Of a DNA stretch of 64,000 bases, positions 19,705 through 62,284 are shown piece after piece. The number at the start of each line of letters is the position of its first letter. The stretch's first letter is position 1. The DNA is taken from the NCBI GenBank assembly GCA_963733675.1, contig CAVTET010000001.1, forward strand, positions 64,001 through 128,000. Reading direction: 5' to 3'. A model generated the notes under the pieces. That model was not told where the DNA came from. It was given only the letters and a program-made list of their open reading frames with translations, and ran no database searches. The stretch is from an uncultured Methanosarcinaceae archaeon (GTDB lineage Archaea; Halobacteriota; Methanosarcinia; Methanosarcinales; Methanosarcinaceae). Both the position numbers and the translations under genes were made by a program.

Positions 19705-20024
19705 TACGCTCTCTTGAGCTTATTTTTAAGTTTTAAACTTAGATTTTTTGAAACACTGAGGGTTATATTAAGAAACATTCGTGGTATTCTTTGAGTAACA
19801 TCTTTAAATGTATTTTTTTACAAACATAGTTTATAATTATCAAAAAAATATATATGTACTATTTTGTCTAAATAAATTTCACAACTATATATTTCTTTTG
19901 ATCAACTTGATTGGCACATAAGGATAGAGCAGAATACTAAAGAGGATTTCGATAATCCTCTGATTTGCAAGGGTCATATATATAATTTATGAACATGTGA
20001 TAAAAGTTCTTTCCACTATGTTCA

Positions 20025-20200
20025 TAAAGTGGATCTGAAGATGTTGTGTACACCTTTTTGTTATATATCTCTTTCAGTTAATTACATTGAAAATAAAAGG
20101 GATATTTTTTGGATAGTTGAAGTAATCTTTAAAATCAAATAATAATGAACACGAAAAAATAGACTCAACTGAAGAAATTTGTGGGAAAGATTTGGACATT
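20025..20200 (+). mobile_element. 3'-end remnant of an IS5-family element
   Basis: Similar to 52170-52340 (ATCTGAAGATGTTGTGTAC..CATTGAAA..AAAAGGG..GTGGGAAAGAT). Confidence 0.55.
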
Positions 20201-20344
20201 ATTTCCGCGAAAAATGGAATCAGAGGTAACTCGGAATCTTCTATATCTGGAGCTTGCTATACATAGAATAGCAATGAGAACAAAAAAAGAATAAAAAGAT
20301 TGGGAAAAGGAAAGTAAAGTACATTTAAAAAAGGGCAACTGCCT

Positions 20345-21310
20345 TTATACATGCCTTATTTCGAAAGATTGAAACAAAATTTCGGGATAAATTTCACCGC
20401 TCGAGATTGTTTTTTTGTTTTTAAGGTCGTTTACATTAAGCCTAGCAGGCGCAAAAATACCCTCATCAACCTTATAAAAGTCAAACCCTGCTTCTTTGAA
20501 GGTCTGATAAAATGGTTTCCCGAAATGGTGGGAATTTATAGAAGGTACCTTCTGTACGAATTCTTCAAGTTCGGCCAGTTCTCCGTTAAAGCACAATGTA
20601 TAGTTTGTTTCGCCGCCGTAAATCACACAGTCATTGGTTGAACCCATGCACTGAATATCGTTTCCGACTATCGGGGCAATGGGAGCAATGCCGTAGCCGC
20701 TCTTAATGCAGTTGATGTCAAAGCCAATTGACTTGAGTTTGTGGATTCCAGCTTCCACGACACGGGCCGAAATTTGGACAGAGCCGGCAATAGAGGCTGT
20801 GGGAGCAACTGCAATCATCACGTTTTCAGGATCCACGCTGCAGTGCTTTGCAATGTAATCGACAACTCTTTCATCAGGTAGTCTATTGGATTCTATGAAC
20901 AGAATTGCAGCTTGGAAGTCATCGTGATATCCTATCTCTTTATAGAGTTCTCTGGGTTTTAAGGCGAGTGCACGCGCAGGACCTGACCCCATTCCGAAGT
21001 AATCTCCGACAGAGATCCTCCAGCCTGCATACTGGGAAGCCATACAAGCAATTACCGGATTGTCAGTTGCTATCTGAATGGCAGGCCACTTGAGACCTTT
21101 CAGATCAAAGGTGGTATATTGTAGGTCAGCAAGGTCAGCTAAGCAGAGTCTCGCCAGGTACAGCCCGGCTTCATATCCCCCATCTTCTTTAACTCCGCAG
21201 TCAATAACTGTAGCCCCATTTTTGAGCTTTGTAACTTCGGTGTTTAGGTCTTCGCTCCAGTCGAGCATTTCTTCCATGACATATGATCCCATTTCGTTGA
21301 CACTTATCAA
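20345..21310 (-). CDS. mch: Methenyl-H4MPT cyclohydrolase
   Basis: [41 protein letters not shown] and FAPA; TTG start. Confidence 0.96.
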
Positions 21311-21739
21311 GGTATCACCCTTCTGGTTCTGGATGAACAGAAATAATGTTGTTAGCCAATATATTTTTATCAGACTTTACATCTTGAATATAATTTTTTA
21401 TAGACCTGAAAGCCATTTGTTAGTCATGGATACTTTTTAATTAGAATGGCTTGCAGATCAACAAATCTCCTAGTAATCGGCAACAGTTTACTTAGATGGA
21501 TTTTGCTCATTCAATGAGGTTAACTACAATATTATTTTGGAGTTTTGTCCAATCAATCAGGGTTAACGACCATATTATATATAAAAAGATATTAGCCGAC
21601 AAGATTATTTCCGGAGTTCTATATACTGATTCTTTTCTGTAATTTTTATCTATATAAGAAGAATTAACATTTAACTATTATTATATTATTCTAATTAGAT
21701 TATAAAGATACGGTCATTTCTTCTTACTATACACTTGAC

Positions 21740-22330
21740 ATTAAGGTTTACTTTCTCCCTTTTCAGTTCTTGTGAGGTCTTTATCTCACTTTTTCAGGAA
21801 CTTATGTCAAATAAGTTGTGTTTCCCTCAATAATTATTTCATCACCGATTTTTATCCCTTCTTCTAGGAGCCTCACTGCCGTAACCTTCAGTTTCGGATA
21901 AAAATTCACAACCATTCCCATAGCCAGACGTTTCTTTCTGGAAGTATTCATATCCTTTCCAGAAGAAAAATCATCGAGACTCGGAATCCCAAGGTAAAAG
22001 CATATAGAAAAGGTACTATTATAAACAGAGGAAAGTTCTAGTTTCCAGATCTCTACTTTTTTCAGATGATAATTTCCTTCTCTTAAGGCGTCGATAGCTT
22101 CCATATAGCAATTGGAAACAACTTCAAGATAACATGGATCTCGCAACTATCCTCCCACCTTAAAGGAATTTATTCCAGCTTTAATAAGCTCTGGAATTTG
22201 CTCTATAAAGCAAATATTTTTACACTAAGAAGATATTTTCCCAGAATCTCTGTACCAACTCCGTTTCCCCCAGTGAGCCTCCATTCCTATCTATATGGTT
22301 AGATGAACTCTCCACAGTTTCCGGATTTGC
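21740..22330 (-). pseudogene. U32 peptidase-family gene, C-terminal remnant
   Basis: Fragments CFIEQIPELIKAGINSFK.GG and RDPxYLEVV..Y.EAID..GIKIGDEIIIEGNTTY, broken by frameshifts and stops. Confidence 0.7.
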
Positions 22331-22594
22331 CTATAATTTTAAACAATTGAAAAAATTAAAATAAATACAGTTTTAAAATTATTTGCGTGCAATCAATGTA
22401 TTATGAATTCAAATCTAATTTAATAATGTTTCAGAGTTAACTGGTAACGAAGCCTCAAGATAAACTCTATAAAAATAAGAGAATGAACTCACTAGTTAAA
22501 GTTTCCTAAAAAAATTCGGAGAACATATACTTTCTCTATTAGGTATTGCTTCTTCCTCCCAGTTTATATGTAGGCAAAAAAATAGTTGCATGAT

Positions 22595-23896
22595 TCACTT
22601 CTTCTTTCGGATCTTTGCAAAAAGCTGTCTTAATGTATCCTCGTTACTTCTTGTGAACTCAAATGGAGAACTTGTAAAAGGTTCAAAGTGTACTGCTACG
22701 TCATCTTGCCTGTAAAAAGTCCCGTCGCATTCCATGGCATCAATGACTCCAGGAAGCACGATGTCTGAAATAACTGTTGTCAGGCAAGGTGCAATGTCTA
22801 GGCAGACGATGGGTATTTTGGCAAGGTAGGTAGCGCAGTCCGCAGGGAGATTGCTAATCAGATCAGAACACACTACAAGAGCTGCATCCACATCTCTTTC
22901 CCGAAGCATATCTACAGTCGTAAATTCTCCGGGATTGAAGCGTGGATATCCCCGCGTGAAATCGAGCCCGAAAGGATAGCCATACATGTAGGAAGCCACC
23001 TGGTTAAAACCTGCCACGTTGCAGTGGCTATGGAGAACTCCAAGAGTAAATTTAGTAAATTTATTAATTTCTTTTACTAAATTCATGACAATTTCCGCGT
23101 TCCTATGCTTTCCGATTGATGATGAAAGTCCTAAACCTACCGAAATGAAACCGAAGTTGCAATTTTTCATAATATCGAGCATCTGTTCCACTATTGAAAT
23201 AGGAACACCTGTGACCTCTTCAACTGAGGGGTGGGGTTTTTTTCCATGCAGAAGCGTAAGAAGTGCGCTGATAAGTTCATAATCGGAATTAGGCTTTAGC
23301 TGCACGTGCAAATCTGAAGCTTCAGTAGTTGGAGTTTTTCTGGGGTCCAGTGTGATGATCATTCTGTCGAAACGACCACGTTTAGTCCAATATCCACGAG
23401 GGAAAACGTCATACCTTGACATCTGCCTCGGAATGGACTCAAGAGGGTTGGTTCCCCAATAGACTATTAGGTCACATCTGTTTTTTTTCTGCCCTTCTGT
23501 TGCAGCGACTTTCCCTGCTTCCTGGATTCCCATAACTGTTGGCCCATGGTAGAGAGATGTATTTGAGTCTACAACTGCACCAAGGTATTCTCCAATATGG
23601 AACCCCACTTTGTGAGCCTCACAAGAGGTCTCGCTGCCCAAGAAGAGCAAGGGCCGTTTTGCAGAAGTAAGGATATCTGTGGCTTTTTCAAGAGCTTCAT
23701 CCCAAGCTACAGATCTCAATTTTCCCCCTTTCTTTATAAGAGGTTGCCTGAGTCGCTTGGAACTTACAACCTTCTTAAATTTGGCATTTCCAATCTTACA
23801 TGCATTTTTAGTTTCAATTGTCCCATCCCCAAGTTCTATTTGGATGTCATCGCAGGCAGCCCCACAAGCCGGACAGACTATATTTTTAAATGCCAT
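22595..23896 (-). CDS. fmdB: Formylmethanofuran dehydrogenase subunit B, non-canonical active site (Cys->Tyr, Arg->His)
   Basis: CPACGAACDD..NACKIG Fe-S motif, YWGTNP, YMYGYPFGLDF and FNPGEFT; SLYHGP instead of xxCHGP; LHSHCNV instead of LRGHxNV. Confidence 0.93.
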   Translation of the reverse strand: MAFKNIVCPACGAACDDIQIELGDGTIETKNACKIGNAKFKKVVSSKRLRQPLIKKGGKLRSVAWDEALEKATDILTSAKRPLLFLGSETSCEAHKVGFHIGEYLGAVVDSNTSLYHGPTVMGIQEAGKVAATEGQKKNRCDLIVYWGTNPLESIPRQMSRYDVFPRGYWTKRGRFDRMIITLDPRKTPTTEASDLHVQLKPNSDYELISALLTLLHGKKPHPSVEEVTGVPISIVEQMLDIMKNCNFGFISVGLGLSSSIGKHRNAEIVMNLVKEINKFTKFTLGVLHSHCNVAGFNQVASYMYGYPFGLDFTRGYPRFNPGEFTTVDMLRERDVDAALVVCSDLISNLPADCATYLAKIPIVCLDIAPCLTTVISDIVLPGVIDAMECDGTFYRQDDVAVHFEPFTSSPFEFTRSNEDTLRQLFAKIRKKK

Positions 23897-24287
23897 ATTC
23901 ATTCCCTCCTACATAAACTTTCAGGACTACATCTTCGGCGCTCAGTACCCTTTCTTCAGTGGGCTCAATTTCCACTGGAGCACCTTTGTAGAGAGGGGAT
24001 CCAGTAGAAAGGGTGTCAGGGTCCACAACTACATTGGACCAGATCGCTTTTGGCATGAATACATTCCCTGGTCTGACTGAATTCATGCATTTTGCATAAA
24101 CTACAACCGAATGTTTACCGTTTTTACTTGTTATCTCAACTTTCTCAGGAGAGCAGAGAGCCACAAAATCAACTGGGGAAATCCAGCAGGTTGCACACTC
24201 CTTAGCATACTCAGCCTTGAATTTATCCCAACCCTTTACAAGTCTGCCTTCTTCAATCGTACTTCCAGTAATGAGTAATACTTCCAT
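23886..24287 (-). CDS. fmdD: Formylmethanofuran dehydrogenase subunit D
   Basis: MEVLLITGSTI..VFMPKAIWSNVVVDPDTLSTGSPLYKG; operon position. Confidence 0.92.
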   Translation of the reverse strand: MEVLLITGSTIEEGRLVKGWDKFKAEYAKECATCWISPVDFVALCSPEKVEITSKNGKHSVVVYAKCMNSVRPGNVFMPKAIWSNVVVDPDTLSTGSPLYKGAPVEIEPTEERVLSAEDVVLKVYVGGNEYGI

Positions 24288-24297
24288 ACATCTGACC

Positions 24298-25107
24298 TCA
24301 AAGCTCGGGGTTTGTATCCACAGCCACATAAAGCACTCCTTTTGCTCGCGTGCTAATCGCATAATCCCCTATGAATTTTTTGAATTTACCTTTTAACTCA
24401 ACACCACCAAGAGTGAGCCCTTCTTCAATGCCTACATATTCGAAACCCGGTGAAAAGCGTTCGATTTTACCCCCGATAACTATGGTTCCGGCTGTCATTT
24501 CGGCACCTACCCCTCTAAGAGCTCTGCCTTTTACAATGATGAGTCCGCCGTTCTGGTGAATTCCACAGAAGCCTTCAACATTGCCTTCCACAATGATTTC
24601 ACCTCCATCCATTCCACCTCCGACCTGATGTCTGGCCGAGCCTTCGATTACAATCCGCCCACCTTTCATACCGTGCCATTTGCCTCTGTAAGCACAGCCA
24701 ACATGATCTCCAGCATTACCTTTAATGTGAAGTAGTCCACCTGTCATTTCCATGGCTGGCCAGGAATCCATATCTCCGGCAACGAAGATTTTGCCACCTT
24801 TCATTCCAGTTCCTAAATGTATGCCTACAGAACCCTCAATTTCAATTTTTCCTGCACTCATATATCCTCCAATTCTTTTGACCCTGGTTACATCACCTTT
24901 TATGCGGATTAGGGTCTCAGCTTCAGAAATATCTCCATTTCCTTGTACTTCAAAAAATTCGCAGAGAGGATATGTCCTTGGCCCCTGCCAGATGGACATA
25001 TTTCCGATTTCTTCCGCACTTTTACCAGCAAAAGAGTCCGGAGTTATAATATCTGCCTCCAGTTTAATATCGACATTCCTTTTCGGAATAAGTATTACTT
25101 CTTTCAT
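24298..25107 (-). CDS. fmdC: Formylmethanofuran dehydrogenase subunit C
   Basis: GxxMxGGxIxxxG beta-helix repeats; GCAYRGKWHGMKGG. Confidence 0.95.
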   Translation of the reverse strand: MKEVILIPKRNVDIKLEADIITPDSFAGKSAEEIGNMSIWQGPRTYPLCEFFEVQGNGDISEAETLIRIKGDVTRVKRIGGYMSAGKIEIEGSVGIHLGTGMKGGKIFVAGDMDSWPAMEMTGGLLHIKGNAGDHVGCAYRGKWHGMKGGRIVIEGSARHQVGGGMDGGEIIVEGNVEGFCGIHQNGGLIIVKGRALRGVGAEMTAGTIVIGGKIERFSPGFEYVGIEEGLTLGGVELKGKFKKFIGDYAISTRAKGVLYVAVDTNPEL

Positions 25108-25111
25108 CACT

Positions 25112-26866
25112 TCACCTCTCACCATTAACCTTTATTGGAGTCGGGTTTGTGAGATACTTTTTGGGAGTTGGGTAGTTGGCAAAGCCAAGGGTATAGTACC
25201 TGAACCATTTCTTCACATCGGCCAGCATCTCCTTTTCCGTTTCGTCCTCTACATGCACTTCGGAATAGTAAGTCTGCTTTTCAGGAATAGAGACGATCTC
25301 TCCTTTAGCAACAACAATTTCGCCTCCCTTTATGGTATATTCTGCCTTCCTGAAGGTTCTGAGGAGAGCTTCGTAATTGTTTGGATCAAGTTGCTGCGGA
25401 TTTATATTGTAAATTGTAATATCTCCGTCAGCACCCACTCCAAGAGAGCCTTTTCTGTGCGCCATGCCAATTGTCCGGGCAGGGTTGGCTCTAGTTAGGA
25501 TCGCAAGATCATAGAGGGAAAGTTCCCGTTTTACTCCTCCTATCTCACTTCTATCATTGGCCCATTTGTGGCATTCACTTATGGTTTGCTTCCTGTAAGC
25601 TTCAGACATGAGCCAGGTAATGACTTCCGGATATTTAGTAAACGGGCCACCATTGGGGCTATCCGTTGTCATAATGGTCTTCCAGGGGTCGTTGATTAGC
25701 AGGAGACATTCAAGTCCCATCGCCCACTGCACGCTGTGCACTGGATTGGACTTGAGGTAGGTAAAGGGCAGGACACCTGAGCCGCCCTCCATCTCAACGT
25801 CTTTATTTGACCACTTGTTTCCTGTAAGTTTGTAAATATCGTAAATGGCAGGCCCGTCTCCCGTCATGGCTGTAGCTTCACCGAAAGGCACGCATCCACT
25901 GTCTATTACGACATGATCCTTGTTGTTGATATATCCTGCAAGTTCTTTAACACCTGATTCAAAATCTGCCCAGGTGGTGCCTCCAAAACTATTAAACATA
26001 AGATGGGCAAGGTATACTGAACGATTCCTTGTTGGATCCATTTTGATTTCAGCCCATTCCACGTCCATGTTCTGCTTGGGCTTTATGCCATCAAGAATTT
26101 TGAGAGATTCTTTTGTAATAGTATAGCAACCCGGATGTCCTAAATTGTTTGCGTGCAAGTGAAGAGGCATCGGCATGCCCAAACGTTCGTTAATCTCGGA
26201 AAGTCCTTTTATGATCTCTCTTGGGGTAATTTCAAAATGGATGTTGGCTTCATCAAGAGACCTTACGTTTTTTCCCCAACCCCAGTTTTCGACTCCTGCG
26301 GGATTGACGCATTTGACTCCATAAGTCTTATGAGTGTTCATCATCCAAGACACGTAAGCAGCAGCCTTTTCGATATCACCTTCTCGGAGGTAGCGCATCA
26401 TAAAGAAATTGTTCCCGAGTTCCAGATACCCTCCCATATCAACAATTGGAGTTGCACGCATTTCTTCATGTGTATGGCGAGCTTCTAGAGGGGGAATTGC
26501 AGCTTCAAAGATAGTTGTATAACCCATTGCTGCGTAATCATAACCCTGTTTGTAAACTGAGGGGACGGTATAACCTGAACCTGAGTGAAGGAGTGAAGTT
26601 TTCTGGATAGTTGCTTTATAGTGGTCTTCCGGGCGCATCATCCTACCGACGTTAACCTTTGAGCCTGCAACGTGAGAATGTGAGTCGACCCCCCCGGGCA
26701 TGACAGTCATTCCGAAAGCATTAATAACCGTTCCTGTTTTCAGTTCGGCAGTAGGAAGTTCTGTCACAACTTTTCCATCCTGGACGAAGATATCCATTAT
26801 TTCGCCCTTTATTTCGTTGAGTGGGTCAAAGACATATCCATTTTTGATCACAACTGTTCCGGTCAT
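25112..26866 (-). CDS. fmdA: Formylmethanofuran dehydrogenase subunit A (binuclear amidohydrolase)
   Basis: DSHSH, GVKCVNPAG, HLHANNLG and TTDSPNGGPF all present. Confidence 0.97.
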   Translation of the reverse strand: MTGTVVIKNGYVFDPLNEIKGEIMDIFVQDGKVVTELPTAELKTGTVINAFGMTVMPGGVDSHSHVAGSKVNVGRMMRPEDHYKATIQKTSLLHSGSGYTVPSVYKQGYDYAAMGYTTIFEAAIPPLEARHTHEEMRATPIVDMGGYLELGNNFFMMRYLREGDIEKAAAYVSWMMNTHKTYGVKCVNPAGVENWGWGKNVRSLDEANIHFEITPREIIKGLSEINERLGMPMPLHLHANNLGHPGCYTITKESLKILDGIKPKQNMDVEWAEIKMDPTRNRSVYLAHLMFNSFGGTTWADFESGVKELAGYINNKDHVVIDSGCVPFGEATAMTGDGPAIYDIYKLTGNKWSNKDVEMEGGSGVLPFTYLKSNPVHSVQWAMGLECLLLINDPWKTIMTTDSPNGGPFTKYPEVITWLMSEAYRKQTISECHKWANDRSEIGGVKRELSLYDLAILTRANPARTIGMAHRKGSLGVGADGDITIYNINPQQLDPNNYEALLRTFRKAEYTIKGGEIVVAKGEIVSIPEKQTYYSEVHVEDETEKEMLADVKKWFRYYTLGFANYPTPKKYLTNPTPIKVNGER

Positions 26867-27904
26867 TTAGTTCACCTCTCTTTTCACAAACCAGATCGCA
26901 TCAACAGGACAAATAAGGACGCATATTCCATCTTCCCCGCAGAGGTCTTGGTTTACAACAAAAATTTTTCCATTTTTGACCTCCAGAAGAGCTTTTTCGT
27001 CCATGTTATTTAAGTGTCCTGCTGCAAGCTCACGGTTATTGAGAGCATTTACCGGACAGACAATAACGCAGTTCCCACAGCCTAGGCATGCATCTTCATC
27101 CGTTTTTATGCATACACGATGCGTAGATTCTGGAACAGGAGCTTCGAGTATCTTTTTCTCTAGGATACTCTTTTTCTCCAAACTCGGCATAATTGAAGTT
27201 TTTCGAACAGTAATAGCGTTCACAGGACAAGCAACTGCACAGGCTCCACAATAAATACATGCATCTGGACGGTGAGTTATCTTTTCGACTCTTTCTCCAG
27301 AGTTGGCCTTTTTGTTAAAAAGAGCATTTGCCGGACAGACTTCTACACAGGTATGGCAGGTTTGACAGACATCCTCATCCAAGATCCATCGTCCTTTAAA
27401 GGGCTTTTCCACGAAAATTGCATTCATCGGGCACACTGCAGCACACCAGCTACAGTGAACGCAGCACGCCGAATTAATGAGAGTCTTTCCAACCAGCTTC
27501 AGGCTTCCATCCTTTGAAATATCCCGGACTACCTCAATACAGTTTCTTGGGCAGATATCCTCACAAAGCCCGCAGTGAACACAGTTTTCATTCACTGTCG
27601 TCGGTTTCATGGCTTTGAAAATATAAGACATGTCATTAAGGATTTTTCCTTCTTGCCTCAACTCAAGAGCACCTGTGGGACAAACTCTTGCACAAATTCC
27701 ACAAATAAGGCAATCTTCCCCCTTTCTTTCCAGAAAATTCGCATCCAACAACTTTCTTACTACAGCCCCTACAGCACCTATTGAAAGGCCACTTTTGGGG
27801 CATGCTTGTACGCAAGTCCCACAGCCGATGCATTTTTCAGGTATATAGATTAGCTGTCGGTTTTTTTTTCCGGAGAAGACCGAAAATCGTTCCCATTCTT
27901 TCAT
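26867..27904 (-). CDS. fmdF: Formylmethanofuran dehydrogenase subunit F polyferredoxin
   Basis: Eight CxxCxxCxxxCP-type motifs (the last reads CGEDGICVLICP). Confidence 0.93.
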   Translation of the reverse strand: MKEWERFSVFSGKKNRQLIYIPEKCIGCGTCVQACPKSGLSIGAVGAVVRKLLDANFLERKGEDCLICGICARVCPTGALELRQEGKILNDMSYIFKAMKPTTVNENCVHCGLCEDICPRNCIEVVRDISKDGSLKLVGKTLINSACCVHCSWCAAVCPMNAIFVEKPFKGRWILDEDVCQTCHTCVEVCPANALFNKKANSGERVEKITHRPDACIYCGACAVACPVNAITVRKTSIMPSLEKKSILEKKILEAPVPESTHRVCIKTDEDACLGCGNCVIVCPVNALNNRELAAGHLNNMDEKALLEVKNGKIFVVNQDLCGEDGICVLICPVDAIWFVKREVN

Positions 27905-27922
27905 TTTGCTTACCTCTCAAAG

Positions 27923-28090
27923 TTATTCTGTGCATGCGCTGCAAAGTAGCTAATTTCCAATGTTCGAATACCTGGCTTGGAGTTCTTGATAGTTCGTCTT
28001 CTTCTCTGAGTCTAGGTTTCTCCGAATACCTCTTATGCTGTAGACTCCTTCAAGAGCCTTTTTGCTTATTATGACCGTTATTTTCCTCAT
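27923..28090 (-). pseudogene. fmdE: Internally deleted fmdE relic
   Basis: Translates MRKITVIISKKALEGVYSIRGIRRNLDSEKKTNYQELQARYSNIGN*LLCSACTE; resembles a recalled Methanosarcina FmdE mid-segment joined to its terminal LLCxxCxE; fmdE position. Confidence 0.65.
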
Positions 28091-28489
28091 GTTACTGATG
28101 ATCACATCAATTGTTTTCGATTGTAGCTACAGCAAGGAACTAAAATGATGCGTGAGTGCCGCATTGAGTCTCATATATCAGATATATACGTTCACCTCCT
28201 CGAATATCGACCATCTGACTTGTAATATTAATATATAGATGCCGGTTAATGCTCCAAAGTTAAGAAAACCATGAAAGAAAATTACCTATTAGATTTGTGA
28301 AAGCACCTAAGGCTCTTTTCCCTGTTCCATCAGGTATTTATCGGAATTTTATTTTTTTATACAATGTGGATAACCATGGGTTTTATTCTTAAATTTTCTT
28401 AAACATGAAGTAGAAAGATACGAGGAGGCAACATAGAAACATATTGCAAGAAATCTTGTTTTATGAATGTAAGATGCAACATATCCATG

Positions 28490-28730
28490 TGAAAGTAAGA
28501 TAAGATTATTACGCTCAAAATTATAGATGATGCTGGTATCATTTGAACCATCCTCAACAACTATACATCGCTTTGGCCGAACTCTGATGTGTCGGACCAA
28601 TTCATCCAATGCATCTTTAGAGCCACTTTGTGTGACGGAGCCTATAACTTTGCCTTTAAGGTCTCAGTTTTCAACAAGCAGTTCATTGGTAACAACGAAG
28701 TCATTATCAGAAGCCTTATAGGCTTCAGTG
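28490..28730 (-). pseudogene. serB: Phosphoserine phosphatase (SerB, HAD) C-terminal remnant
   Basis: DFVVTNELLVEN*DLKGKVIGSVTQSGSK..CIVVEDGSND resembles SerB NELxVxxG.LTG..GDGAND; internal stop, no N-terminus. Confidence 0.6.
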
Positions 28731-28879
28731 GCATAAATTATATAAATATTAAGCAAAAAGGTATATATAATGTATAAATTTATACAATCTGTCAGATATA
28801 TAAGTGCATTGATAAATTGTTTATAAATTATTTAGTAATTTCTTATAGAAGAAAATGGTCAACGCAGGATTTTGGAAAA

Positions 28880-29710
28880 ATGGTTAAGATTGGGATTATA
28901 AAAATGGGCAACCTGGGGATGAGTCAGGTTATTACTCTGATCCAGGATGAAATGGCAGCTAGAGAGGGAATCACAGTAAGGGTATTTGGAACAGGCGCTA
29001 AGATGGGCTTAGCCGAAGCTTTGGATACTGAAAATTTCAAGCAGTGGCAAGCAGACTTTGTGATAATTATCAGCCCTAACGCAACAGCTCCAGGACCCAC
29101 TGCAGTCCTTGAAGCATGGAAGAACGTGCCATGCATTGTGATCTCAGATGGGCCAAAAAAGAAAGAAGCTAGAGATGCTTTGGAGCAACAAGGCTTTGGA
29201 TATATTATCCTCCCCGTAGATCCGCTCATCGGAGCAAAAAGAGAGTTTCTTGATCCAGTGGAAATGGTAGTCTTCAACGCTGATGTGATGAAAGTTCTAT
29301 CTATTTGTGGTGTTGTAAGACTTCTTCAAGAAGAACTCGACAAAATTACAGCGCAGCTTGCTTCCAAAAAGTCCGAAAAGAAACTAGAGCTCCCACATAT
29401 TTTTGCAAAACCAGAAAAATGCATTCAACATGCAGGTTTCTCAAATCCCTATGCGAAAGCAAAGGCTCTTGCCGCCCTTCACATAGTTGAAAAAGTAGCA
29501 CAGGTTAATTACCCTGTCTGTTTCACGCTAAAGAATCTTGACCAAATATGTCTTACAGCTGCAGCAGGACATGAAATAATGGGAGCTGCTGCGCATCTCG
29601 CAACTCAGGCAAGGGAAATTGAAAAATCCAATGATACTGTCTTCAGACAATCCCATGCAAAGAGCGGCATCCTGCTGACGAAAACTAAATTATATGAAAA
29701 ACCAAAATGA
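28880..29710 (+). CDS. mtd: F420-dependent methylene-H4MPT dehydrogenase, copy 1
   Basis: KMGNLG..QDEMAAREGI..GTGAKM, DPLIGAKREFLDPVEM and NPYAKAKA. Confidence 0.95.
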   Translation: MVKIGIIKMGNLGMSQVITLIQDEMAAREGITVRVFGTGAKMGLAEALDTENFKQWQADFVIIISPNATAPGPTAVLEAWKNVPCIVISDGPKKKEARDALEQQGFGYIILPVDPLIGAKREFLDPVEMVVFNADVMKVLSICGVVRLLQEELDKITAQLASKKSEKKLELPHIFAKPEKCIQHAGFSNPYAKAKALAALHIVEKVAQVNYPVCFTLKNLDQICLTAAAGHEIMGAAAHLATQAREIEKSNDTVFRQSHAKSGILLTKTKLYEKPK

Positions 29711-30406
29711 AAATTGAAAATTATTTTAAAGTTTTGAAATCGAAAACCTTATCAGAAAATCATGAAAAAATGTTACTGGGTGAGAATAGGAGACTTGTTA
29801 TTATTTTCAGGGGTTTTGATTGATAGAAGTCAATTGCTAGTGGAATTAAAGATCAATTTTGGAGATCCTCGAAGATGTTAAAAATCTCGAGATTTAAGCA
29901 ACAATTTAATTAAATAACATATTTGATTAAATAGTTTCTCCAGTAAGACATGAGAAATTAAAAAATTTGAAGCTGGGAATCGAAGAAGAAACTTGAACAA
30001 AAAATATGAAATAGTGAATCTATCTAAAGTATCCCACAAAAGTTTCAAATTTGATTATTTTAACTGATATTCTTGAGATGTACCTATATGTATAATTCTT
30101 TGCCTATTTGCTATGATCATTCTCGAACTCATTTCATGTAGATGAACACATGAATTTTCTCTATTTTCTTAATACGAAAGTAGCTTAAAAATTAATTTAG
30201 CTTTCAAGAATAATAGTAGGTATATAGGCAAACAAATTATATCTCTGTATATATTTGCGAAATTTAGGATTATTCATTGAAGAACATTCTCCTGAATTTT
30301 TGATTTATTGCAGTCAATTACCAGTATAATTGATGATAAATTTTTGCGATCTCAGAATATATTCAAAAATCTCTAAATTAACAATGATTGAAAAAGAGGG
30401 ATTTTT

Positions 30407-31300
30407 ATAGAAATCAATGGAGTAGAAATCGAAAATACATATGCAGAAGCTTTTCAGATCAAGATTGCACGAGTGCTCATCACAGCCGTTACAAAACGCT
30501 GGGCTCTTGTGGCAGCTACTGAAGCTACAGGCTTCGCAACGTCTGTTATAATGTGTCCTGCAGAAGCAGGAATCGAAAAACTAGCAGATCCAAGTGAAAC
30601 CCCTGATAAGAGGCCTGGAGTCTACATCCAAATCTGTAATTTCAAATATGAAGCTCTGGAAAAACAATTACTTGAAAGGATCGGGCAATGTATACTTACA
30701 GCTCCTACAACTTCAGTTTTCAATGGGCTTTATGAAGCTGAAAAGCAATTTAACATCGGCTCCAAACTCAAATTTTTTGGGGATGGTATGGAGTCAGAAT
30801 CCCAGATTGCTGGTCGCAAAGTATATAAAATTCCTCTAATGGGAGGAGATTTCCTGAATGAAGTAAATATCGGAGCTGTAACTGGAATTGCAGGAGGCAA
30901 CTTCTTTATTTTTGGAGACTCGCAGATGAGCGCCCTTACAGCAGCCGAAGTTGCTGTGGATGCAATTGCAGAGCTCGAAGGCACAATTACCCCTTTCCCT
31001 GGTGGCATTGTAGCTAGCGGATCCAAATCCGGAGCAAACAAGTACAAATTCCTGAAGGCTACAACTAACGAAAAATTTTGCCCCTCCATAAAACACAAGA
31101 TTGAGGACACTGAAATTCCAGCAGATGTCAATTCTGTTTATGAAATAGTTATCAATGGGCTTGATGAAGTAAGTGTTAAAGCTGCCATGAGAGCAGGAAT
31201 TAAATGTGCTGTAACTGTTCCAGGCATCAAGAAAATCACCGCAGGAAACTACGGTGGAAAGCTCGGGAAATACCAGTTCAAACTGCACGACCTATTCTGA
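30407..31300 (+). CDS. ftr: Formylmethanofuran:H4MPT formyltransferase; the expected start codon reads ATA
   Basis: ATA GAA ATC AAT GGA GTA GAA ATC = (M)EINGVEI, the Ftr N-terminus, in frame with 30473..31300; GFATSVIMCPAEAG, LTAPTT and AGNYGGKLG. Confidence 0.9.
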   Translation: MEINGVEIENTYAEAFQIKIARVLITAVTKRWALVAATEATGFATSVIMCPAEAGIEKLADPSETPDKRPGVYIQICNFKYEALEKQLLERIGQCILTAPTTSVFNGLYEAEKQFNIGSKLKFFGDGMESESQIAGRKVYKIPLMGGDFLNEVNIGAVTGIAGGNFFIFGDSQMSALTAAEVAVDAIAELEGTITPFPGGIVASGSKSGANKYKFLKATTNEKFCPSIKHKIEDTEIPADVNSVYEIVINGLDEVSVKAAMRAGIKCAVTVPGIKKITAGNYGGKLGKYQFKLHDLF

Positions 31301-31859
31301 TCTCTATATTTTTTTCGGTTTCAGTTTTCACAATTTCCTTTTTTACTGATTAAGGACGAAGTAGTCAAGAACAAAATGTAATATGGCGATGAGAAAAAAA
31401 TACAAAACAAGAAATATTGACTTCATGGTTTGATTTTTTTGAGATTATATGTAGAGAAAATATTGTCGTGCTAATTGGCTATTTTTGGGTCATCAAATTT
31501 CAAGAGATCTGAAACCAGCAGAATGAATTTCTTCTGATCAATGCCAGTAACTCATATCATTACATAAGCTGCGAGGAAAGCTCCTGTAATCATTCCGAGA
31601 TTTGCAAACTGACAACAAGGAAAGTAAGCATGAACCAATTTTTAACATATCTTTGAAGGTTTTAATTCTTCCAGGGCTTTTATATCAGCTATGGAGGATT
31701 TTGCGGTTTTGCCTCCTACAGCCAGCAAACTAGCCTTCAGTAATCAATGGCTTCGGAGTGATTAGAAAGGCGATCAAAAAAGCATTCAGAGGTAAATAAG
31801 GGTGGTCTTCGTAGAGTAGATTCCAGTCTGCACTCTGGACTCTGTTGAGAATGAATCTA

Positions 31860-32880
31860 CATATGAAAGCTATTAAAAATAGTATACTCAAAATAAGTAA
31901 ACTATTTTATAGATAAGATACGAAATTGAATTAACCCACAGTATTCAAATGCTTGGATCAACAAAGGCAATGCTCTTGGCAATTTAAACAGGTTTGAAGA
32001 TGCAATGAAAACAGTTGACAAAGAAATTGAAATTAACATACAGGGTTCATATGCGTGGTAAAATAAAGCAGTTGTTCTCTATAATTTTAATAAATTCGAT
32101 GAAGCAATGAGATTCTGTAACAAAGCAATTGAAATTAACCCGCAACTCCGAAGCTTGGTACGATAAAAGCACCTTATCTAAATAAAATAAATTCAATTTG
32201 TAATTTGAATAATTATTTTAATTTTCATGGGGGTAACAGTGGGTTTTCTACTAAATATCAATGATTAGATCATATTTAACATATTTATTCTGCAAATATT
32301 TATTTATTTTATAATTATATAATCAGTATTATGTATAAGAAACTAATTATAATCGTACTTATGATAGTATTTATATCATTGATATCAACGATCTCTAGCG
32401 CATCGACGGACTCACAAACTTTTGGTGATAAAGGAAACAGGTTTGATAGCTCAGGCCAACACGATGAAGCCATAAAAACCTATGACAAAGAATTGCAAGT
32501 GACCGACTGGACGAAAATGCTTGGATCGGTAAAAGCGACTTTTTATCTAAATCATATAAGTGCGATGAAGTAATCAAAGTAGATAACCAAGCATGTGAAA
32601 TTTTTTACAATCAAGGAGCAAATCTTGTGAACTCGGGCCAACGTGATGAAGCAATAAAAGTTTATGGCAAAGTACTTTTAAGGAAACCGGTGGGTTCAAA
32701 AGCTTGAATCTGAAAGGGTGACACTCTTGAGAAATTAGGTAGATTAGATGAAGCATACACAGATATGATAAAACAGTGATCCGGGTGGTTTGACCAAAAA
32801 AGCCATAATTATCGAAAAAATTAAGCAAATAAATCGTGGTTCTTAAACACAAAGAAGAGCTGTGATACTCTTGGTAAGAT
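31860..32880 (+). pseudogene. Fragments of TPR-repeat genes, one with a signal peptide (32331..32573)
   Basis: Repeated KAIEINPQ/AWxNKG/DEAIKxYDK pieces broken by stops and frameshifts. Confidence 0.7.
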
Positions 32881-33149
32881 ACATCTCCAATATTTTGGTT
32901 GTTTCCATTTTTTACACAGATGCACAGATTTTGCTATAAAACCTATGCATCAATGAAACTGAGAAATCCTGTTTTATAATGAAAGAAGGGAATGCATGAC
33001 AATCATTTTTACAGAACTTTCCAGGGCTCTAGGCACTTATTTTATGGAAGAGTATATCTTAACCAAAGCCCAATAAGAGGTTATTAATAGATTAAAATGA
33101 ACAAATGCTGTATACCAAAGAAAAATCATCTCTATACGCTTGTAACTAA

Positions 33150-34394
33150 CTATACTATTTGAGTCAATGTCGGTGCTGAATGCGACATTTGGTTCCGTTG
33201 CAAAAGTTCTGGAAACAGTCTCATCCATAGAATTGCAATGATTATTGTACCAATTCCACCAAGTAACACAGCAGGTATAACCCCCAAAAAGGAGGCAGTT
33301 AACCCGGATTCAAATTCTCCAAGTTGATTTGATGTACCTATAAACATTGTATTTACGGCGTTTACTCTACCTCTCATATTATCTGGGGTTTCCATTGGTA
33401 TCAATGTTGAACGGACGACTACACTTACCACATCAGATGCTCCTAACATTATAAGTGATGTGAATGATAATACAAAAGAGTTTGATAAAGCGAAAATTAT
33501 GGCAAATATTCCAAAAAATATTACCACAACAAACATAATAAGCCCTACATTTCTCTTTAATGGCTTTAGTGCCAAAATAACGGAGAGTATCAATGCACCT
33601 ATGGCAGGTGCTGAACGCAACAATCCTAAACCTAAAGGTCCAATTTTTAAAATATTACTAGCATAAACCGGTAATAAGGCTGGAGCACCTCCAAATAATA
33701 CTGCAAAAAGGTCAAGGGATATTGCCCCAAGTATAACAGGCTTGCTTTTAATGAACGATATTCCCCCGAATATTGAATTTATGGTCAGTGGTTCAGAGTT
33801 TTGCTGCTCCTTCTTTATTGAAATGAAGAGAATAATCACACTTGTCGCCAAAGGTAATATACCAGCTATAGAGTACGCAACTGTGGGATTTAATGCATAA
33901 AGGACTCCTCCAATTGCTGGGCCTAGAATGATTGCAAACTGGGCTGTAGAGGTTGCTAAAGCAGCTACCTATGGGAAAAGTTCCTTGCTGACAACATTAG
34001 GTAGCAAAGATTTCATTGAAGGGCCTTGAAAAGCATTGGCAATACCTATAAAAAAGATAGTAACGAGAATTCCCTCTTTGGTAATCCATCCGTTATGACT
34101 TTCGAAAGCAAGAAAAAAAATCCCTATACTTTCTACAATTTAACTGAAACAAATTATCAACTTTCGGTCATAACGATCTGCTACATAGCCAACTACAAGA
34201 GTAAGTAGAAACATAGGTAAAAACTGTACTAATCCAACAAGTCCAAGATAAAAAGGCATTTGAGTAAGTGAATAAATTTGCCAACCTACAGCAACACTTA
34301 ATATTTGAAAAGCAATGGTGGTTGATATACGGGCAGCCAATAAGAGTATTAAGGATCTGTTTTGAAATGCAAGTGGAACTTTAAGTGGAAACAT
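33150..34394 (-). pseudogene. MFS transporter, frameshifted
   Basis: N-terminal VAVGWQIY..LGLVGLVQFLP..ADRYDRK and C-terminal GAISLDLFAVLFGG..TPDNMRGRV..SNQLGEFESG lie in separate ORFs. Confidence 0.85.
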
Positions 34395-34754
34395 TCTATT
34401 ATTAGCTCCTTCTGATGGTAGTGCCTGGGAAGATGGAGATATCTTAGGGTTCTTCGAGGTGGCAGCGTGAGTCAAGCAGCCAGGGTCTGCACCTCAGTGT
34501 ACCGATATAGCTGCGAAAAAGATAAGTCCAGCGACTCTATTTCGGGCTTTAGTCTGTTGAGAGAACTGTGATTTTTGGTTTTGTTGCAAAATCAGTGTAA
34601 ACCTTTGCAATTAGGGAAGTTAATTATTCTTATCACCGGGAAACTAGTACACAAAGGCAATAATTGTAGTATCAAACTGCGGAAATATAATTTTTGCACC
34701 ACGACCTTTGATGGAGCTTCAAAGAAAGTGCATCAAATATCAAGATTAATATAA

Positions 34755-35339
34755 TTAATTCCTTATAGCCAACAGAAAATAGGCTTTAATGCTACTCGGT
34801 CCGAGTCCCGTATCGAAAGTTGAGTCTTTTATGTAAATAATGTTAAACAATGATTTGAAAGTAAGTTCTATTTCAGCTATTGAAATCCGCCTGAGCCCGT
34901 AGACTTTGTGCTCTTTCTCGGAAAAACAGAGCATGAAATATTTGCCGCCTGGTTTTAGCACTCTACGGACTTGCTGTGCAAAAACTGGTCTTTCCTCATC
35001 CGTCATCGCATCAAACAAACCCGAATCTATAATGAAATCAAATTCAGCCTCCATGAAAAGTCGGTCCATCTGTAACACATTTCCGACTACAAAATTCACT
35101 TTAACATGACGCTTTATGGCTTTTGCTTTTGCATCTTTGATAGCATCTTCAACAATGTCTATACCCGCGACATCACACCCATTTATGGCTAACATTATTG
35201 CATTATCACCCCGGCCACATCCAATATCCAGAGCTCTGCCAGGGTTAATTTCTCCGTCATTTATAAGAGCTTCGAAAACTGGCTGGGAATGACCGATGTC
35301 CCATGGTGGTGTGCCTATGTATGCTTTATTCCAATTCAA
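34755..35339 (-). CDS. Class I SAM-dependent methyltransferase
   Basis: PPWDIG, ALDIGCGRG, DSGLF and LKPGGKY. Confidence 0.88.
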   Translation of the reverse strand: MNWNKAYIGTPPWDIGHSQPVFEALINDGEINPGRALDIGCGRGDNAIMLAINGCDVAGIDIVEDAIKDAKAKAIKRHVKVNFVVGNVLQMDRLFMEAEFDFIIDSGLFDAMTDEERPVFAQQVRRVLKPGGKYFMLCFSEKEHKVYGLRRISIAEIELTFKSLFNIIYIKDSTFDTGLGPSSIKAYFLLAIRN

Positions 35340-35939
35340 GCTAATCTTCTCACGACTAAAAATTCAGTTACAAATTCGATTACGGATGAATAATTTACTA
35401 ATTGATCATTGTATGCTTTTAGCTTTCCCTAAATAAAATTATCTGATCAACTATAATATAGTTTTCTCAAAATAAAAGATTTTATATTATTCTCTGATTT
35501 TTTATTCCATTGAAGAACCATGTACCGAAAGTTTCATAAAAAGGAATGTTTTTAATTTCTTGCTACGATTACAAAATGAGATTTCACGGCTACGTAGGTG
35601 CAGAGATTTTTGTGATTAAACCTGTGCATCAATGAAAGCAACAAAAAATGAAACTTTGTCAGCAAAACTATTGGCTCAGTATCCGACTTTTTAATAAAAC
35701 AATGTTAATATTAAAAGTTGTTCAATGTTAAAATATTTTATGGGGAAAGAAGTTTTATTCAGAAACTATTTTTTTTATAATTAATTTATAATAACTAACA
35801 AACTCAGTAATTAATGTAGTTCATCAAAATTTATTGGTGTACTAGAATGGATATCAACCAATTAATTTTTTGTAGCTTAAATAGTTACCAAAAAAATTCC
35901 AGTATAATTATCAATTTTAGTCATAAAGAAGTAAACTAA

Positions 35940-36310
35940 ATGTTGAAACAAAAAATTAGTAGAATAAAAAAGATACTGGTTATTTTGCTTTCAGTCCTTT
36001 TTGTAGCATCAGTGACAGCTATGGCAGCTGTTACTGCTCCGCATGGCGGACACGGTGGACATATCATCATCACCATCATCACCATCACGGGTACTGGGGA
36101 TATGGTTATTATGGTTATTATGGTGGTTATGGTGGTTATTATCCAGAACCAGCTGCAGTAGAACAAGTTGTCATAGGTGGATATGGCTACGGATACGATG
36201 GAGATGGATACTGGAACAGTTATCATCACTGGCACCGCCACCACCCCCATCACCACCATCACCATCACCACCATCATGGTCACGGACACGGTGGACACGG
36301 CCATCACTGA
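35940..36310 (+). pseudogene. Secreted His/Gly/Tyr-rich small protein with a 1-nt frameshift near 36063
   Basis: Signal peptide MLKQKISRIKKILVILLSVLFVASVTAMA; after a -1 shift the frame reads HHHHHHHHGYWGYGYYGYYGGYGGYYPEP...HHHHHGHGHGGHGHH*. Confidence 0.75.
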
Positions 36311-38833: not shown

Positions 38834-38922
38834 AAAAGGATTCGTTTCACATTCACTTTTGAAGCGTCAAATGCGATGACTTTCAAAAGTTGGAAAGAAA
38901 CTTTAGAAAAGAGGGAGTATAA

Positions 38923-40534: not shown

Positions 40535-40559
40535 TAATTTGGTATGTGGAAATAATTTT

Positions 40560-61453: not shown

Positions 61454-62284
61454 ATGGTTAATATCGGCATTATAAAAATGGGAAACCTGGGGATGAGTCA
61501 GGTTATCAATCTAATCCAGGATGAAATGGCAGCGAGAGAGGGGATCACAGTACGAGCATTTGGAACAGGTGCTAAGATGGGTTTAGCCGAAGCTATGGAC
61601 ACTGAAAGTTTCAAGCAGTGGCACGCAGACGTTATGATAATTATCAGCCCTGACGCAACAGCTCCAGGTCCCACTGCACTCCTTGAATCATGGAAGAACG
61701 TGCCATGCATTGTGATCTCAGACGGGCCAGAAGATATGACAGCCAGAAAAGCTTTGGAGCATCAAGGCTTAGGATATATTATCTTGTCGGTAGATCCGCT
61801 TATCGGAGCAAAAAGAGAGTTTCTTGATCCAGTGGAAATGGTAGCCTTCAACGCAGATTTAATGAAAGTTCTCTCTATTTGTGGTGTTGTAAGACTTATT
61901 CAAGAAGAACTCGACAAAATAACAGAGCAACTTGCTTCCGGAAAGTCCGGGATGGAACTGGAGCTCCCACACATTTTTGCAAACCCAGAGAAATGCATTC
62001 AACATGCAGGTTTCTCAAATCCCTATGCGAAAGCAAAGGCTCTTGCTGCCCTTCACATAGCTGAAAAAGTAGCACAGGTCAACTACCCTGTATGTTTCAT
62101 GCTAAAGGAACTTGATCAAATATGCCTTACAGCTGCAGCAGGACATGAAATAATGGGGTCTGCTGCTCATCTTGCAACTCAGGCAAGAGAAATTGAAAAA
62201 TCCAATGATACTGTCTTCAGACAATCCCATGCAAAGAGCGGCACCCTGCTGACGAAAACTAAATTATATGAAAAACCAAAATAA
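61454..62284 (+). CDS. mtd: F420-dependent methylene-H4MPT dehydrogenase, copy 2
   Basis: Full-length paralogue of 28880..29710. Confidence 0.95.
   Translation: MVNIGIIKMGNLGMSQVINLIQDEMAAREGITVRAFGTGAKMGLAEAMDTESFKQWHADVMIIISPDATAPGPTALLESWKNVPCIVISDGPEDMTARKALEHQGLGYIILSVDPLIGAKREFLDPVEMVAFNADLMKVLSICGVVRLIQEELDKITEQLASGKSGMELELPHIFANPEKCIQHAGFSNPYAKAKALAALHIAEKVAQVNYPVCFMLKELDQICLTAAAGHEIMGSAAHLATQAREIEKSNDTVFRQSHAKSGTLLTKTKLYEKPK

Follow-up and report, generated by a model that had tools for sequence, protein, structure and literature searches.

Methanosarcina is considered a metabolic generalist, and formylmethanofuran dehydrogenase an enzyme that strictly depends on molybdenum or tungsten. 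The bacterial Fhc complex of Methylorubrum extorquens (PDB 6S6Y) combines an FmdA-type amidohydrolase, whose binuclear site is intact, with a B subunit unable to hold a metallopterin. Together with Ftr, Mch and Mtd-type partners, it takes H4MPT-bound C1 units to formate. FhcB is not known to carry the N-terminal Fe-S domain. The account of Fhc in PMC11656701 has the D subunit lost and the B loops remodelled, and it gives four His, Asp and carboxy-Lys as the binuclear-metal ligands of subunit A.

In Methanosarcina barkeri/acetivorans, the fmdEFACDB operon (Fmd1, names as in PMC2838876) encodes an FmdB with a Cys-His...Arg active site, includes an intact fmdE, and coexists with Fwd isoenzymes and molybdenum cofactor (Moco) genes. 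Methanosphaera is described as lacking Moco biosynthesis while retaining fmd/fwd in a branch thought to be anabolic (PMC6120340; PMC9723798), and Methanimicrococcus blatticola (Methanosarcinales) as having lost Moco synthesis along with the ability to reduce CO2 and to oxidise methyl groups (PMC9723798).

RESULTS

An fmd operon clustered with mch, mtd and ftr

The window, that is, the whole stretch of 64,000 nucleotides analysed, belongs to a 3.9-Mb genome (G000) whose sister species is G019. Between positions 20345 and 31300, it carries eight genes, all open and full-length family members by profile score, with mch and the fmd genes on one strand and mtd and ftr on the other (Table 1). Matches to TIGR03121, TIGR03129 and TIGR03122 were above their cut-offs, so the A, B and C subunits are encoded together with D and F. 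The sequence-only reading of this DNA had described the cluster as open amid stop-ridden accessory genes, with neither mer nor mtr in the window. The same coordinates were recovered, the decayed neighbours turned out to be fmdE and a Peptidase_U32 fragment, and mer and mtrH were found intact elsewhere in the genome. The order F-A-C-D-B, the upstream fmdE remnant and 74-86% identity to canonical operons relate the locus to Fmd1.

Table 1. Features of the locus, with coordinates in the window
Feature	Coordinates	Strand	Evidence
mch, cluster copy, methenyl-H4MPT cyclohydrolase	20345..21310	-	TTG start; PF02289 433 bits, TIGR03120 456 bits
Peptidase_U32 pseudogene fragment	21689..22334	-	73% identity to intact C4 neighbour (tblastn); stops, frame changes
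fmdB, without Mo/W ligand, 435 aa	22595..23902	-	TIGR03129 598 bits
fmdD, pterin-dinucleotide-binding-domain subunit	23886..24362	-	PF01568 41.7 bits; NF042908 65.6 bits (under cut-off 175)
fmdC	24298..25125	-	TIGR03122 293 bits
fmdA, amidohydrolase subunit	25112..26866	-	TIGR03121 840 bits
fmdF, polyferredoxin, 8 x [4Fe-4S]	26867..27904	-	eight ferredoxin-type matches
fmdE pseudogene	27962..28333	-	35% identity/125 residues to G013 FmdE (tblastn); several in-frame stops
mtd, cluster copy, F420-dependent methylene-H4MPT dehydrogenase	28880..29710	+	PF01993 397 bits
ftr, formyl-MFR:H4MPT formyltransferase	30410..31300	+	TIGR03119 420 bits; ATA at start position
mtd, second intact copy	61454..62284	+	PF01993 388 bits; 83.6% identical to cluster copy

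FmdB has lost the metal ligand and the catalytic arginine

FmdB was aligned to solved FmdB/FwdB structures. At position 118, the Cys that serves as Mo/W ligand is replaced by Tyr (codon TAC at 23549-23551), the reference residue being Cys in 9sw6_J and X in 9sfi_Q, and the catalytic Arg is replaced by His (Arg291His). Thus, of the hallmarks of Mo/W-dependent Fmd/Fwd, the Cys/Sec ligand is gone and the conserved active-site His and Arg are reduced to His119. Loss of the catalytic residues had been claimed before, and it holds with the exception of this histidine. Lys41, the four Fe-S cysteines and 84 of the 90 columns invariant in canonical FmdB are kept as well. Tyr118 is common to all nine sequences of a Tyr clade (G000, G019, P0001, P0002 and L057-L061). 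In 32 canonical sequences, the catalytic Arg does not vary. Its place is taken by His, Asn or Ser in these relatives, which are 86-97% identical, and the position is unconstrained inside the clade.

Cys118 is also missing from orphan FmdB paralogues of Methanosarcinales (the 'fmdB3' type), which share changes at positions 292 and 351 with the Tyr clade. Cys-less paralogues made up 48 of the 120 closest protein clusters. A maximum-likelihood tree united the orphans with the Tyr clade (UFBoot 99/SH-aLRT 98), but the alternative of a Tyr clade grouped with Fmd1 was not rejected (AU test, p 0.37). Unlike the operonic Tyr-type fmdB, the orphans stand alone (fmdA nearby in 0/18 loci), have lost His119 and Lys41, and coexist with canonical enzymes and Moco.

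Molybdenum cofactor genes were not found

The cluster fmdB was the sole match to PF00384 and TIGR03129 in the 3.9-Mb genome, which holds no other molybdopterin-oxidoreductase gene. In profile searches of G000 and G019, assemblies that are each 92% complete, MoaA, MoaC, MoaE and MoeA were not found; PF01967, PF03453, PF06463 and PF02391 had zero matches there and were matched in most other genomes of the genus searched. MoaC was present in 27/31 and MoeA_N in 28/31 genus genomes, and only G000 and G019 missed both. MoaA-C and MoaE were present in 3/5 genomes, the missing pair being again G000 and G019. Together with the loss of the ligand, this strongly implies that FmdB would be pterin-free.

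Other subunits are retained

The metal-ligand motifs of FmdA (HxH, K, HLH, H and D) were all kept in an alignment to 5t5i_A, so the hydrolase site seen earlier is indeed there. Of the cysteine columns that never vary across six canonical FmdF sequences, 32/32 were kept in FmdF of G000 and G019. The retention of FmdF, FmdD and the FmdB Fe-S cysteines, which the sequence-only reading had counted against its own proposal, is therefore a stronger objection than it had stated. By bit score, FmdA (620-630 to archaeal FwdA vs 242 to 6s6y_A) and FmdB (609 to archaeal 9sw6_J vs 28 to 6s6y_B) are archaeal proteins.

The clustering is conserved and derived

The order ftr, mtd, decayed fmdE, fmdFACDB, decayed U32 fragment, mch was repeated in every Tyr-type locus with sufficient flank. 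In such loci, mtd and ftr lay upstream in 3/3 cases vs 0/29 canonical Cys-type loci, and mch lay downstream in 3/3 vs 2/42. Four complete genomes of the genus have fmd, mch, mtd and ftr 0.2-4 Mb apart, in line with the scatter that the sequence-only reading had stated for model Methanosarcina, and the clustering was never seen with canonical FmdB, let alone in many relatives.

The ancestral loci of mtd and mch are on other contigs. A second mch copy, 89% identical to the cluster copy, occupies the ancestral locus C4:482919-483881, and orthologues of the cluster copy exist in L057, L058 and L059. The U32 fragment was co-duplicated with mch from C4, where the intact gene matches PF01136; it is decayed in L057 and L059 and deleted in L058. 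The ancestral mtd locus on C6 is decayed (48.6% identity), and a copy of the mtd-ftr spacer follows the second mtd (92% match to window 29711-30368). The clustering is thus not due to chance, as the clade conserves it and its mtd and mch copies were relocated. Decay of fmdE extends to G019, L058, L059 and L060.

The single ftr of the genome lacks an ATG, as had been noticed: ATA, preceded by a GAGGGA motif, stands exactly at the ATG position of G013 and is conserved in five loci (G000, G019, L058, L059 and L060). This implies that translation may be weak. In G019/L060, the one mtd that was assembled is a pseudogene with an ATT start and internal TAA stops, so at least one member of the clade has this branch interrupted.

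The kept genes are under purifying selection

Between G000 and G019, dN/dS was 0.16 for fmdB, 0.12 for fmdA, 0.18 for fmdC, 0.33 for fmdD, 0.24 for fmdF, 0.20 for mtd and 0.12 for ftr. Across clade pairs, mtd ranged from 0.11 to 0.20 and ftr from 0.10 to 0.14, and the two mch copies gave 0.136. With dS up to 0.4, the fmd genes, mtd, mch and ftr had values of 0.10-0.33 in all pairs but one, the exception being fmdD between the two closest relatives (0.85, dS 0.03). The kept genes of the cluster are under purifying selection, and fmdE and the U32 fragment, full of stops beside them, are internal neutral controls. Contigs from RNA libraries (4 runs, 3 studies; 95-99% identity) covered fmdB, D, C, A, F, mtd and ftr, although such contigs do not prove transcription. 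Neither dN/dS near 1 nor lack of expression, the signs of decay named by the sequence-only reading, was thus encountered.

DISCUSSION

Our best reading, held with modest confidence, is that the locus encodes a Mo-free, Fhc-like complex that would hydrolyse formyl-methanofuran to formate. On this reading, a small clade of peat/soil Methanosarcina (G000, G019, L057-L061) had a common ancestor in which molybdopterin biosynthesis and all other Mo/W enzymes were lost. In the sole remaining fmdEFACDB operon, FmdB would have been stripped of its Mo ligand and catalytic Arg and the accessory fmdE would have decayed, while selection would have preserved FmdF, A, C, D and B and copies of mtd, ftr and mch would have moved beside the operon. 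With ligand, Arg and Moco gone, the complex would no longer interconvert CO2 and formate; since the metal-binding residue of FmdB is missing, formate is probably split off instead of CO2 being made. By analogy with Fhc, the intact FmdA site would most likely cleave formyl-methanofuran into formate and methanofuran, and a low-flux oxidation of methyl-H4SPT via Mer, Mtd, Mch and Ftr would end at formate. In a mainly acetate-using methanogen, such a branch may provide F420H2, recycling of carriers and formate, which could serve purine synthesis of the PurP type, among other uses. The genome has two intact genes of the PurP family, and no other formate source is evident, as a genome search of G000 found no Fdh.

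The CO2/formate couple lies at about -0.43 V. That of formyl-methanofuran is placed at -0.53 V in PMC11656701. Hydrolysis is hence the downhill direction; from these two potentials, condensation of free formate was calculated to be ~19 kJ/mol uphill at standard conditions.

Fhc offers a parallel in its amidohydrolase (6s6y_A), in a B subunit incapable of binding a metallopterin, as predicted for Tyr-type FmdB, and in its partner enzymes, from which we infer a similar route to formate here. It differs in having no D subunit, whereas the Tyr-type locus keeps fmdD under selection, and in a short B subunit (361 residues) matching only query residues 67-155 of the full-length Tyr-type FmdB. Ftr is a subunit of Fhc (FhcD), whereas the cluster ftr is divergent from the fmd genes. 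The Tyr-type locus also keeps FmdF and all Fe-S ligands; a pure hydrolase should need no electron wire, and Fhc has none. The retained Lys41, His119 and most FmdB columns, the broken mtd of G019/L060, the ATA start of ftr and the failure to find a FocA-type channel also count against the hydrolase reading. The convergent evolution suggested by the sequence-only reading is fair for function only; by sequence the proteins of the window belong with standard archaeal Fmd (600-630 bits to archaeal structures), outside the Fhc family. Its Fhc-like module withstood each genomic test applied and gains from the clade-wide residue loss, the Moco genes and further Mo enzymes not found in the searches, selection, clustering, mfnB and RNA contigs; the release or uptake of formate that it attached to the module is a prediction.

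It is unlikely, albeit conceivable, that the complex is still a redox enzyme, in which a preserved nine-cluster path leads electrons to a remodelled Tyr118/His119 site holding a Mo/W-pterin that is salvaged and bound through a tyrosinate, or else some other metal or cofactor, for CO2-formate interconversion or another redox reaction. The intact FmdF and FmdB cysteines, FmdD, the 84 preserved columns and the electron-relay Lys41, lost in all 14 orphan Cys-less paralogues, speak for it. Against it are the missing Moa and MoeA genes, the drift of the catalytic Arg and the tolerated decay of fmdE. Moreover, we know of no Mo/W-bisPGD enzyme with a Tyr ligand. Methanosphaera, which belongs to a phylum other than that of Methanosarcina, likewise carries a formylmethanofuran dehydrogenase and other H4MPT-branch genes without making molybdopterin, and external Moco uptake has been proposed for it (PMC6120340). 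In the Tyr clade, however, the canonical site could not be re-formed with salvaged Moco because ligand and Arg are gone; unlike Methanosphaera, this clade has mtd, ftr and mch rebuilt around the operon and CODH/ACS in the genome.

Slow decay is quite unlikely: the upper C1 branch would have been abandoned, as in methyl-reducing or strictly acetoclastic methanogens, with frames not yet broken. The losses of Moco, FmdB residues, fmdE and the ftr ATG, the broken mtd of G019/L060, and MtaB and MttB not found in G000 would fit, and M. blatticola is a precedent for loss of the whole branch (PMC9723798). Yet, the eight genes keep low dN/dS in nearly all pairs, while the sequences that share their history (the U32 fragment, fmdE and the old mtd locus) have gone down to 35-73% identity and gathered many stops. 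Three genes of C1 metabolism were brought to the locus and then kept, RNA contigs cover cluster genes, and ftr, despite an ATA start common to five loci, has the lowest dN/dS of the set. In M. blatticola, fwd/fmd, ftr, mch, mtd and the methanofuran genes are deleted; the Tyr clade keeps and clusters the former, and the methanofuran synthesis gene mfnB is intact.

We consider it very unlikely that external formate is condensed with methanofuran, or that FmdA acts on another amide with FmdB/D/F as scaffold. Canonical FmdA does perform the condensation (PMC11656701), hydrogenases able to supply F420H2 are present, and Ftr and Mch would remain usable in G019 without Mtd. However, the uphill energetics make the formate assimilation entertained by the sequence-only reading thermodynamically unlikely, the reaction needs formate concentrated in the closed internal cavity described for the canonical enzyme (PMC11656701), and a FocA-type formate channel was not found in the genome, as in two control genomes. 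Most improbable is a pterin-independent redox catalyst in which the eight FmdF clusters, the FmdB cluster and Lys41 feed the Tyr118/His119 pocket for the CO2/formate/formyl-methanofuran step or another reaction; if true, it would be a formylmethanofuran dehydrogenase functioning without molybdenum or tungsten.

The locus also brings to attention a large and apparently undescribed set of Cys-less FmdB paralogues. If the hydrolase reading is true, a Methanosarcina clade devoid of molybdopterin, with a maintained, re-clustered and apparently transcribed Fmd that has no metal ligand, would represent a natural intermediate on the way from the archaeal dehydrogenase to the Fhc hydrolase of bacteria. 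Such a clade would bear on the source of free formate in methanogens, on whether methyl oxidation in a methanogen can stop at formate, and on how peat methanogens cope without Mo/W.

FmdB without its metal ligand

FmdB residues are numbered here according to the M. wolfei convention. Alignment of the window FmdB with solved FmdB/FwdB chains revealed that the Mo/W ligand is replaced by Tyr (SLYHGP, codon TAC; the aligned position is Cys in 9sw6_J and X in 9sfi_Q) and the Arg of the RGH motif by His (LHSHC). His119, the residue adjacent to the lost ligand that is named in PMC11656701, is kept. Taking as reference the 90 alignment columns invariant across 32 canonical FmdB/FwdB sequences, 84/90 are kept in the source genome (G000) and its sister species (G019), the changes being C118Y, R291H, G292S/A, Y322F, and H351N; G019 alone also has T92I. 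In both, Lys41 and the four Fe-S cysteines of FmdB are kept. Among the partner subunits, FmdA aligned with 5t5i_A has all of the HxH, Lys, HLH, His, and Asp motifs, and FmdF retains 32/32 of the cysteine columns invariant in six canonical FmdF. We considered that Tyr118, His119, and His291 might form a new metal site. This idea was weakened on finding His, Asn, or Ser at position 291 among close relatives. Since position 291 varies while Tyr118 and His119 are constant, constraint seems to have been relaxed where the catalytic Arg once stood, which fits less well with a new metal site.

Stand-alone FmdB paralogues lacking Cys118 (orphans) are common in Methanosarcinales, accounting for 14/48 sequences of our genus sample and 48/120 among the closest protein clusters (loci L023-L025, L036, L037, and L041-L049). 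Most have Gly-Asn for Cys-His, with Lys41 replaced as well, and fmdA was not found near any of the 18 metagenome orphan loci. The ML tree favors an origin of Tyr-type FmdB from these orphans, but the alternative is not rejected by the AU test (p 0.37). At one locus (L049, in genome G005), the genes downstream of an orphan fmdB, all on its strand, encode a hexapeptide-repeat protein, a formate dehydrogenase alpha subunit (its gene split into two overlapping frames), and a subunit of the FdhB F420 type; contig C15 of another genome (G024) shows a similar adjacency. The L049 neighborhood hints at a tie between ligand-less FmdB and formate metabolism.

Apparent loss of the molybdenum cofactor pathway

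The window corresponds to positions 64001-128000 of contig C1 of G000. The G000 genome (3.92 Mb, 15 contigs, 35.7% G+C) is rated 92% complete; others in the genus span 2.3-5.8 Mb and contain Methanosarcina-type fmd/fwd sets. A genome-wide profile search returned the window FmdB as the sole TIGR03129 and sole PF00384 match in G000, and 2-6 FmdB-like matches per genome in relatives. Therefore, G000 has no FwdB, second FmdB, or formate dehydrogenase. Profile searches of 31 genus genomes found MoaC in 27, the exceptions being G000, G019, G003 (80% complete), and G021 (83% complete), and MoeA_N in 28, the exceptions being G000, G019, and G016 (75% complete). MoaA-C and MoaE were present in 3/5 genomes searched and not found in the other two, G000 and G019. 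Because the molybdenum cofactor (Moco) biosynthesis genes lie at five separate places in the complete genome G013, 8% incompleteness is unlikely to be the cause of the missing genes.

A conserved cluster with recruited partner genes

FmdA, FmdB, FmdC, Mch, Mtd, and Ftr all far exceeded the curated cut-offs in family-profile searches, and every gene of the cluster is open (table). The surroundings are unrelated (MCM, SpoU methylase, LarA-family racemase, a truncated MFS gene, a methyltransferase, and an IS240-type transposase).

Features of the cluster and related loci. Coordinates without a contig refer to the window; dN/dS is pairwise NG86, with G000 vs G019 at dS 0.17-0.33.
Feature	Location	Strand	State	dN/dS, G000 vs G019	dN/dS, G000/L058/L059/L060
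fmdB	within 20345-31300	minus	open	0.16	0.16-0.29
fmdD	within 20345-31300	minus	open	0.33	0.20-0.85 (0.85 from pair with dS only 0.03)
fmdC	within 20345-31300	minus	open	0.18	0.14-0.25
fmdA	within 20345-31300	minus	open	0.12	0.11-0.19
fmdF	within 20345-31300	minus	open	0.24	0.17-0.30
mch	within 20345-31300	minus	open		0.16-0.22
mtd	within 20345-31300	plus	open	0.20	0.11-0.16
ftr	within 20345-31300	plus	open	0.12	0.10-0.14
ftr start position	30410-30412		ATA		
Stretch aligned to G019 contig C30	22324-31904				
fmdE-pseudogene bin	28020-28420				
Dispersed repeats beside cluster genes	20002-20246, 30126-30270		non-coding		
Stretch of low coding density	31300-41000				
MFS gene	33150-33851		truncated		
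IS240-type transposase	39765-40469				
Second mtd	61454-62935 region		intact		
mtd remnant, G000	G000:C6:186709-187245		decayed, ~49-51% identity		
mtd remnant, G019	G019:C63:28730-29412		decayed, ~49-51% identity, stops		
Second FmdE-family gene	G000:C3:439029-439418		two in-frame TAA stops		
Third FmdE-family copy	G000:C5:5670-6074		intact		
Orphan fmdB array, L049	G005:C7, 7001-12495				

The sister species matched the window with 88.5% identity across 9.6 kb. Of 80 FmdB loci from a metagenome scan, 57 have Cys118, 5 have Tyr118 (L057-L061, 86-97% identical), and 18 have other residues. Upstream mtd and ftr accompany 3/3 Tyr loci with at least 7.5 kb of flank vs 0/29 Cys loci, and downstream mch 3/3 Tyr loci with at least 1.7 kb of flank vs 2/42 Cys loci, both distant (66-67% identity). 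Since the Tyr loci form one clade, the pattern records a single evolutionary event and should not be counted three times.

Distances between fmd, mch, mtd, and ftr are 0.2-4 Mb in the four complete genus genomes compared. Judged by synteny with G013, mch originally lay on contig C4, where an intact copy still stands, and mtd on C6, where nothing but a strongly decayed remnant (48.6% identity) survives: the original mtd copy died after the gene's move beside fmd. The cluster mch came along with part of the adjoining Peptidase_U32 gene. Numerous stops now interrupt this fragment in the window, L057, and L059; L058 has lost it, and there mch lies 140 nt behind fmdB. That the window mch is a duplicate specific to G000 was ruled out by an orthologous copy in L057, L058, and L059, with the same U32 fragment save for its deletion in L058. 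Upstream of fmdF, an fmdE remnant of 35% identity is interrupted by several stops, and the gene has decayed in G019, L058, L059, and L060 as well; the operon therefore descended from fmdEFACDB.

Two further FmdE-family genes occur in G000 (table). The second mtd of the window is 83.6% identical to the cluster copy; behind it, 660 nt duplicate the mtd-ftr spacer at 92% identity, with no second ftr there. The low-density stretch probably contains further pseudogenes. Repeats of ~100-250 nt, 72-83% identical, occur at dozens of sites genome-wide, many on every large contig, and an ~850-nt element is also dispersed in dozens of copies in G000. Such elements may have mediated the cluster rearrangements.

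Selection and expression

The dN/dS values are listed in the table; the cluster and C4 copies of mch gave 0.14. Sequences of the same age that evolved neutrally show the contrast: fmdE, the U32 fragment, and mtd at its old locus have all decayed.

Metatranscriptome contigs from four runs of three studies matched, with 95-99% identity, fmdB, D, C, A, F, mtd, and ftr, bearing in mind that RNA libraries can contain DNA and that the depth of contigs is no basis for ranking genes. A single 2199-nt contig spans fmdC-fmdA-fmdF. None of the four runs covered the fmdE-pseudogene bin, which we did not count as evidence.

The ftr start is ATG in G013 and ATA in the window, with a GAGGGA motif six bases ahead. 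The ATA is conserved in five loci, though no other gene of the set is under tighter constraint than ftr. This makes ftr a candidate archaeal case of translation by weak AUA initiation. An upstream short frame (ATG...TAG overlapping the ATA) was ruled out as a means of ftr translation, as L058 has no ATG there.

Working model and metabolic context

Because the ligand, the Arg, and the cofactor are gone, FmdB would be unable to interconvert CO2 and formate. The reaction left with an intact FmdA is formate + methanofuran = formyl-methanofuran. The CO2/formate couple lies at about -0.43 V. The formyl-MFR couple is given as -0.53 V in PMC11656701. Computed from these two values, formyl-MFR hydrolysis is downhill by ~19 kJ/mol. 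We infer that the simplest working model is a module resembling the bacterial formyltransferase/hydrolase complex (Fhc): Mer and Mtd would oxidize methyl-H4SPT, yielding two F420H2, Mch and Ftr would carry the formyl group onward to methanofuran, and FmdA would set formate free.

Against this model count the kept polyferredoxin, FmdB cluster, Lys41, and FmdD, which are not expected in a hydrolase and whose equivalents are absent from Fhc (PMC11656701); a structural role for them is possible. In G019/L060, the sole assembled mtd begins with ATT and is interrupted by internal TAA stops. Because mtd is broken there and intact in the close relative L059 (dS 0.10), the branch is dispensable, or was recently lost, in one clade member.

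The nearest precedents are Methanosphaera, which without Moco synthesis kept its fmd genes (PMC6120340), Methanimicrococcus, where the whole branch was deleted (PMC9723798), and bacterial Fhc, of which the present complex is not a member by sequence. Unlike these, the present case lies inside Methanosarcina, with catalytic residues replaced, fmdE decayed, and three partner genes recruited to the operon. As the FmdB catalytic residues are replaced, salvage of the cofactor could not bring the canonical site back. Searches of openly available full-text articles brought up no account of a Methanosarcina lacking Moco, of a Tyr-type FmdB, or of FmdB paralogues without the Cys.

A FocA-type channel was not found in G000, G019, or two control genomes; since the controls lack it too, this is uninformative. 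In G000, no member of the MtaB (methanol) or MttB (trimethylamine) families was found, other genus genomes having 1-3 of each; in G019 a single MtaB was found and no MttB. Most methylotrophy seems to have been lost by the clade. Intact elsewhere in G000 are Mer, MtrH, MfnB, CdhC, NiFe hydrogenases, and two PurP-family genes. PurP uses formate, and the module might supply reducing power, recycle carriers, or provide formate for PurP. This intact gene set, together with the missing MtaB and MttB, suggests that the organism is mainly acetate-using and unable to reduce CO2.
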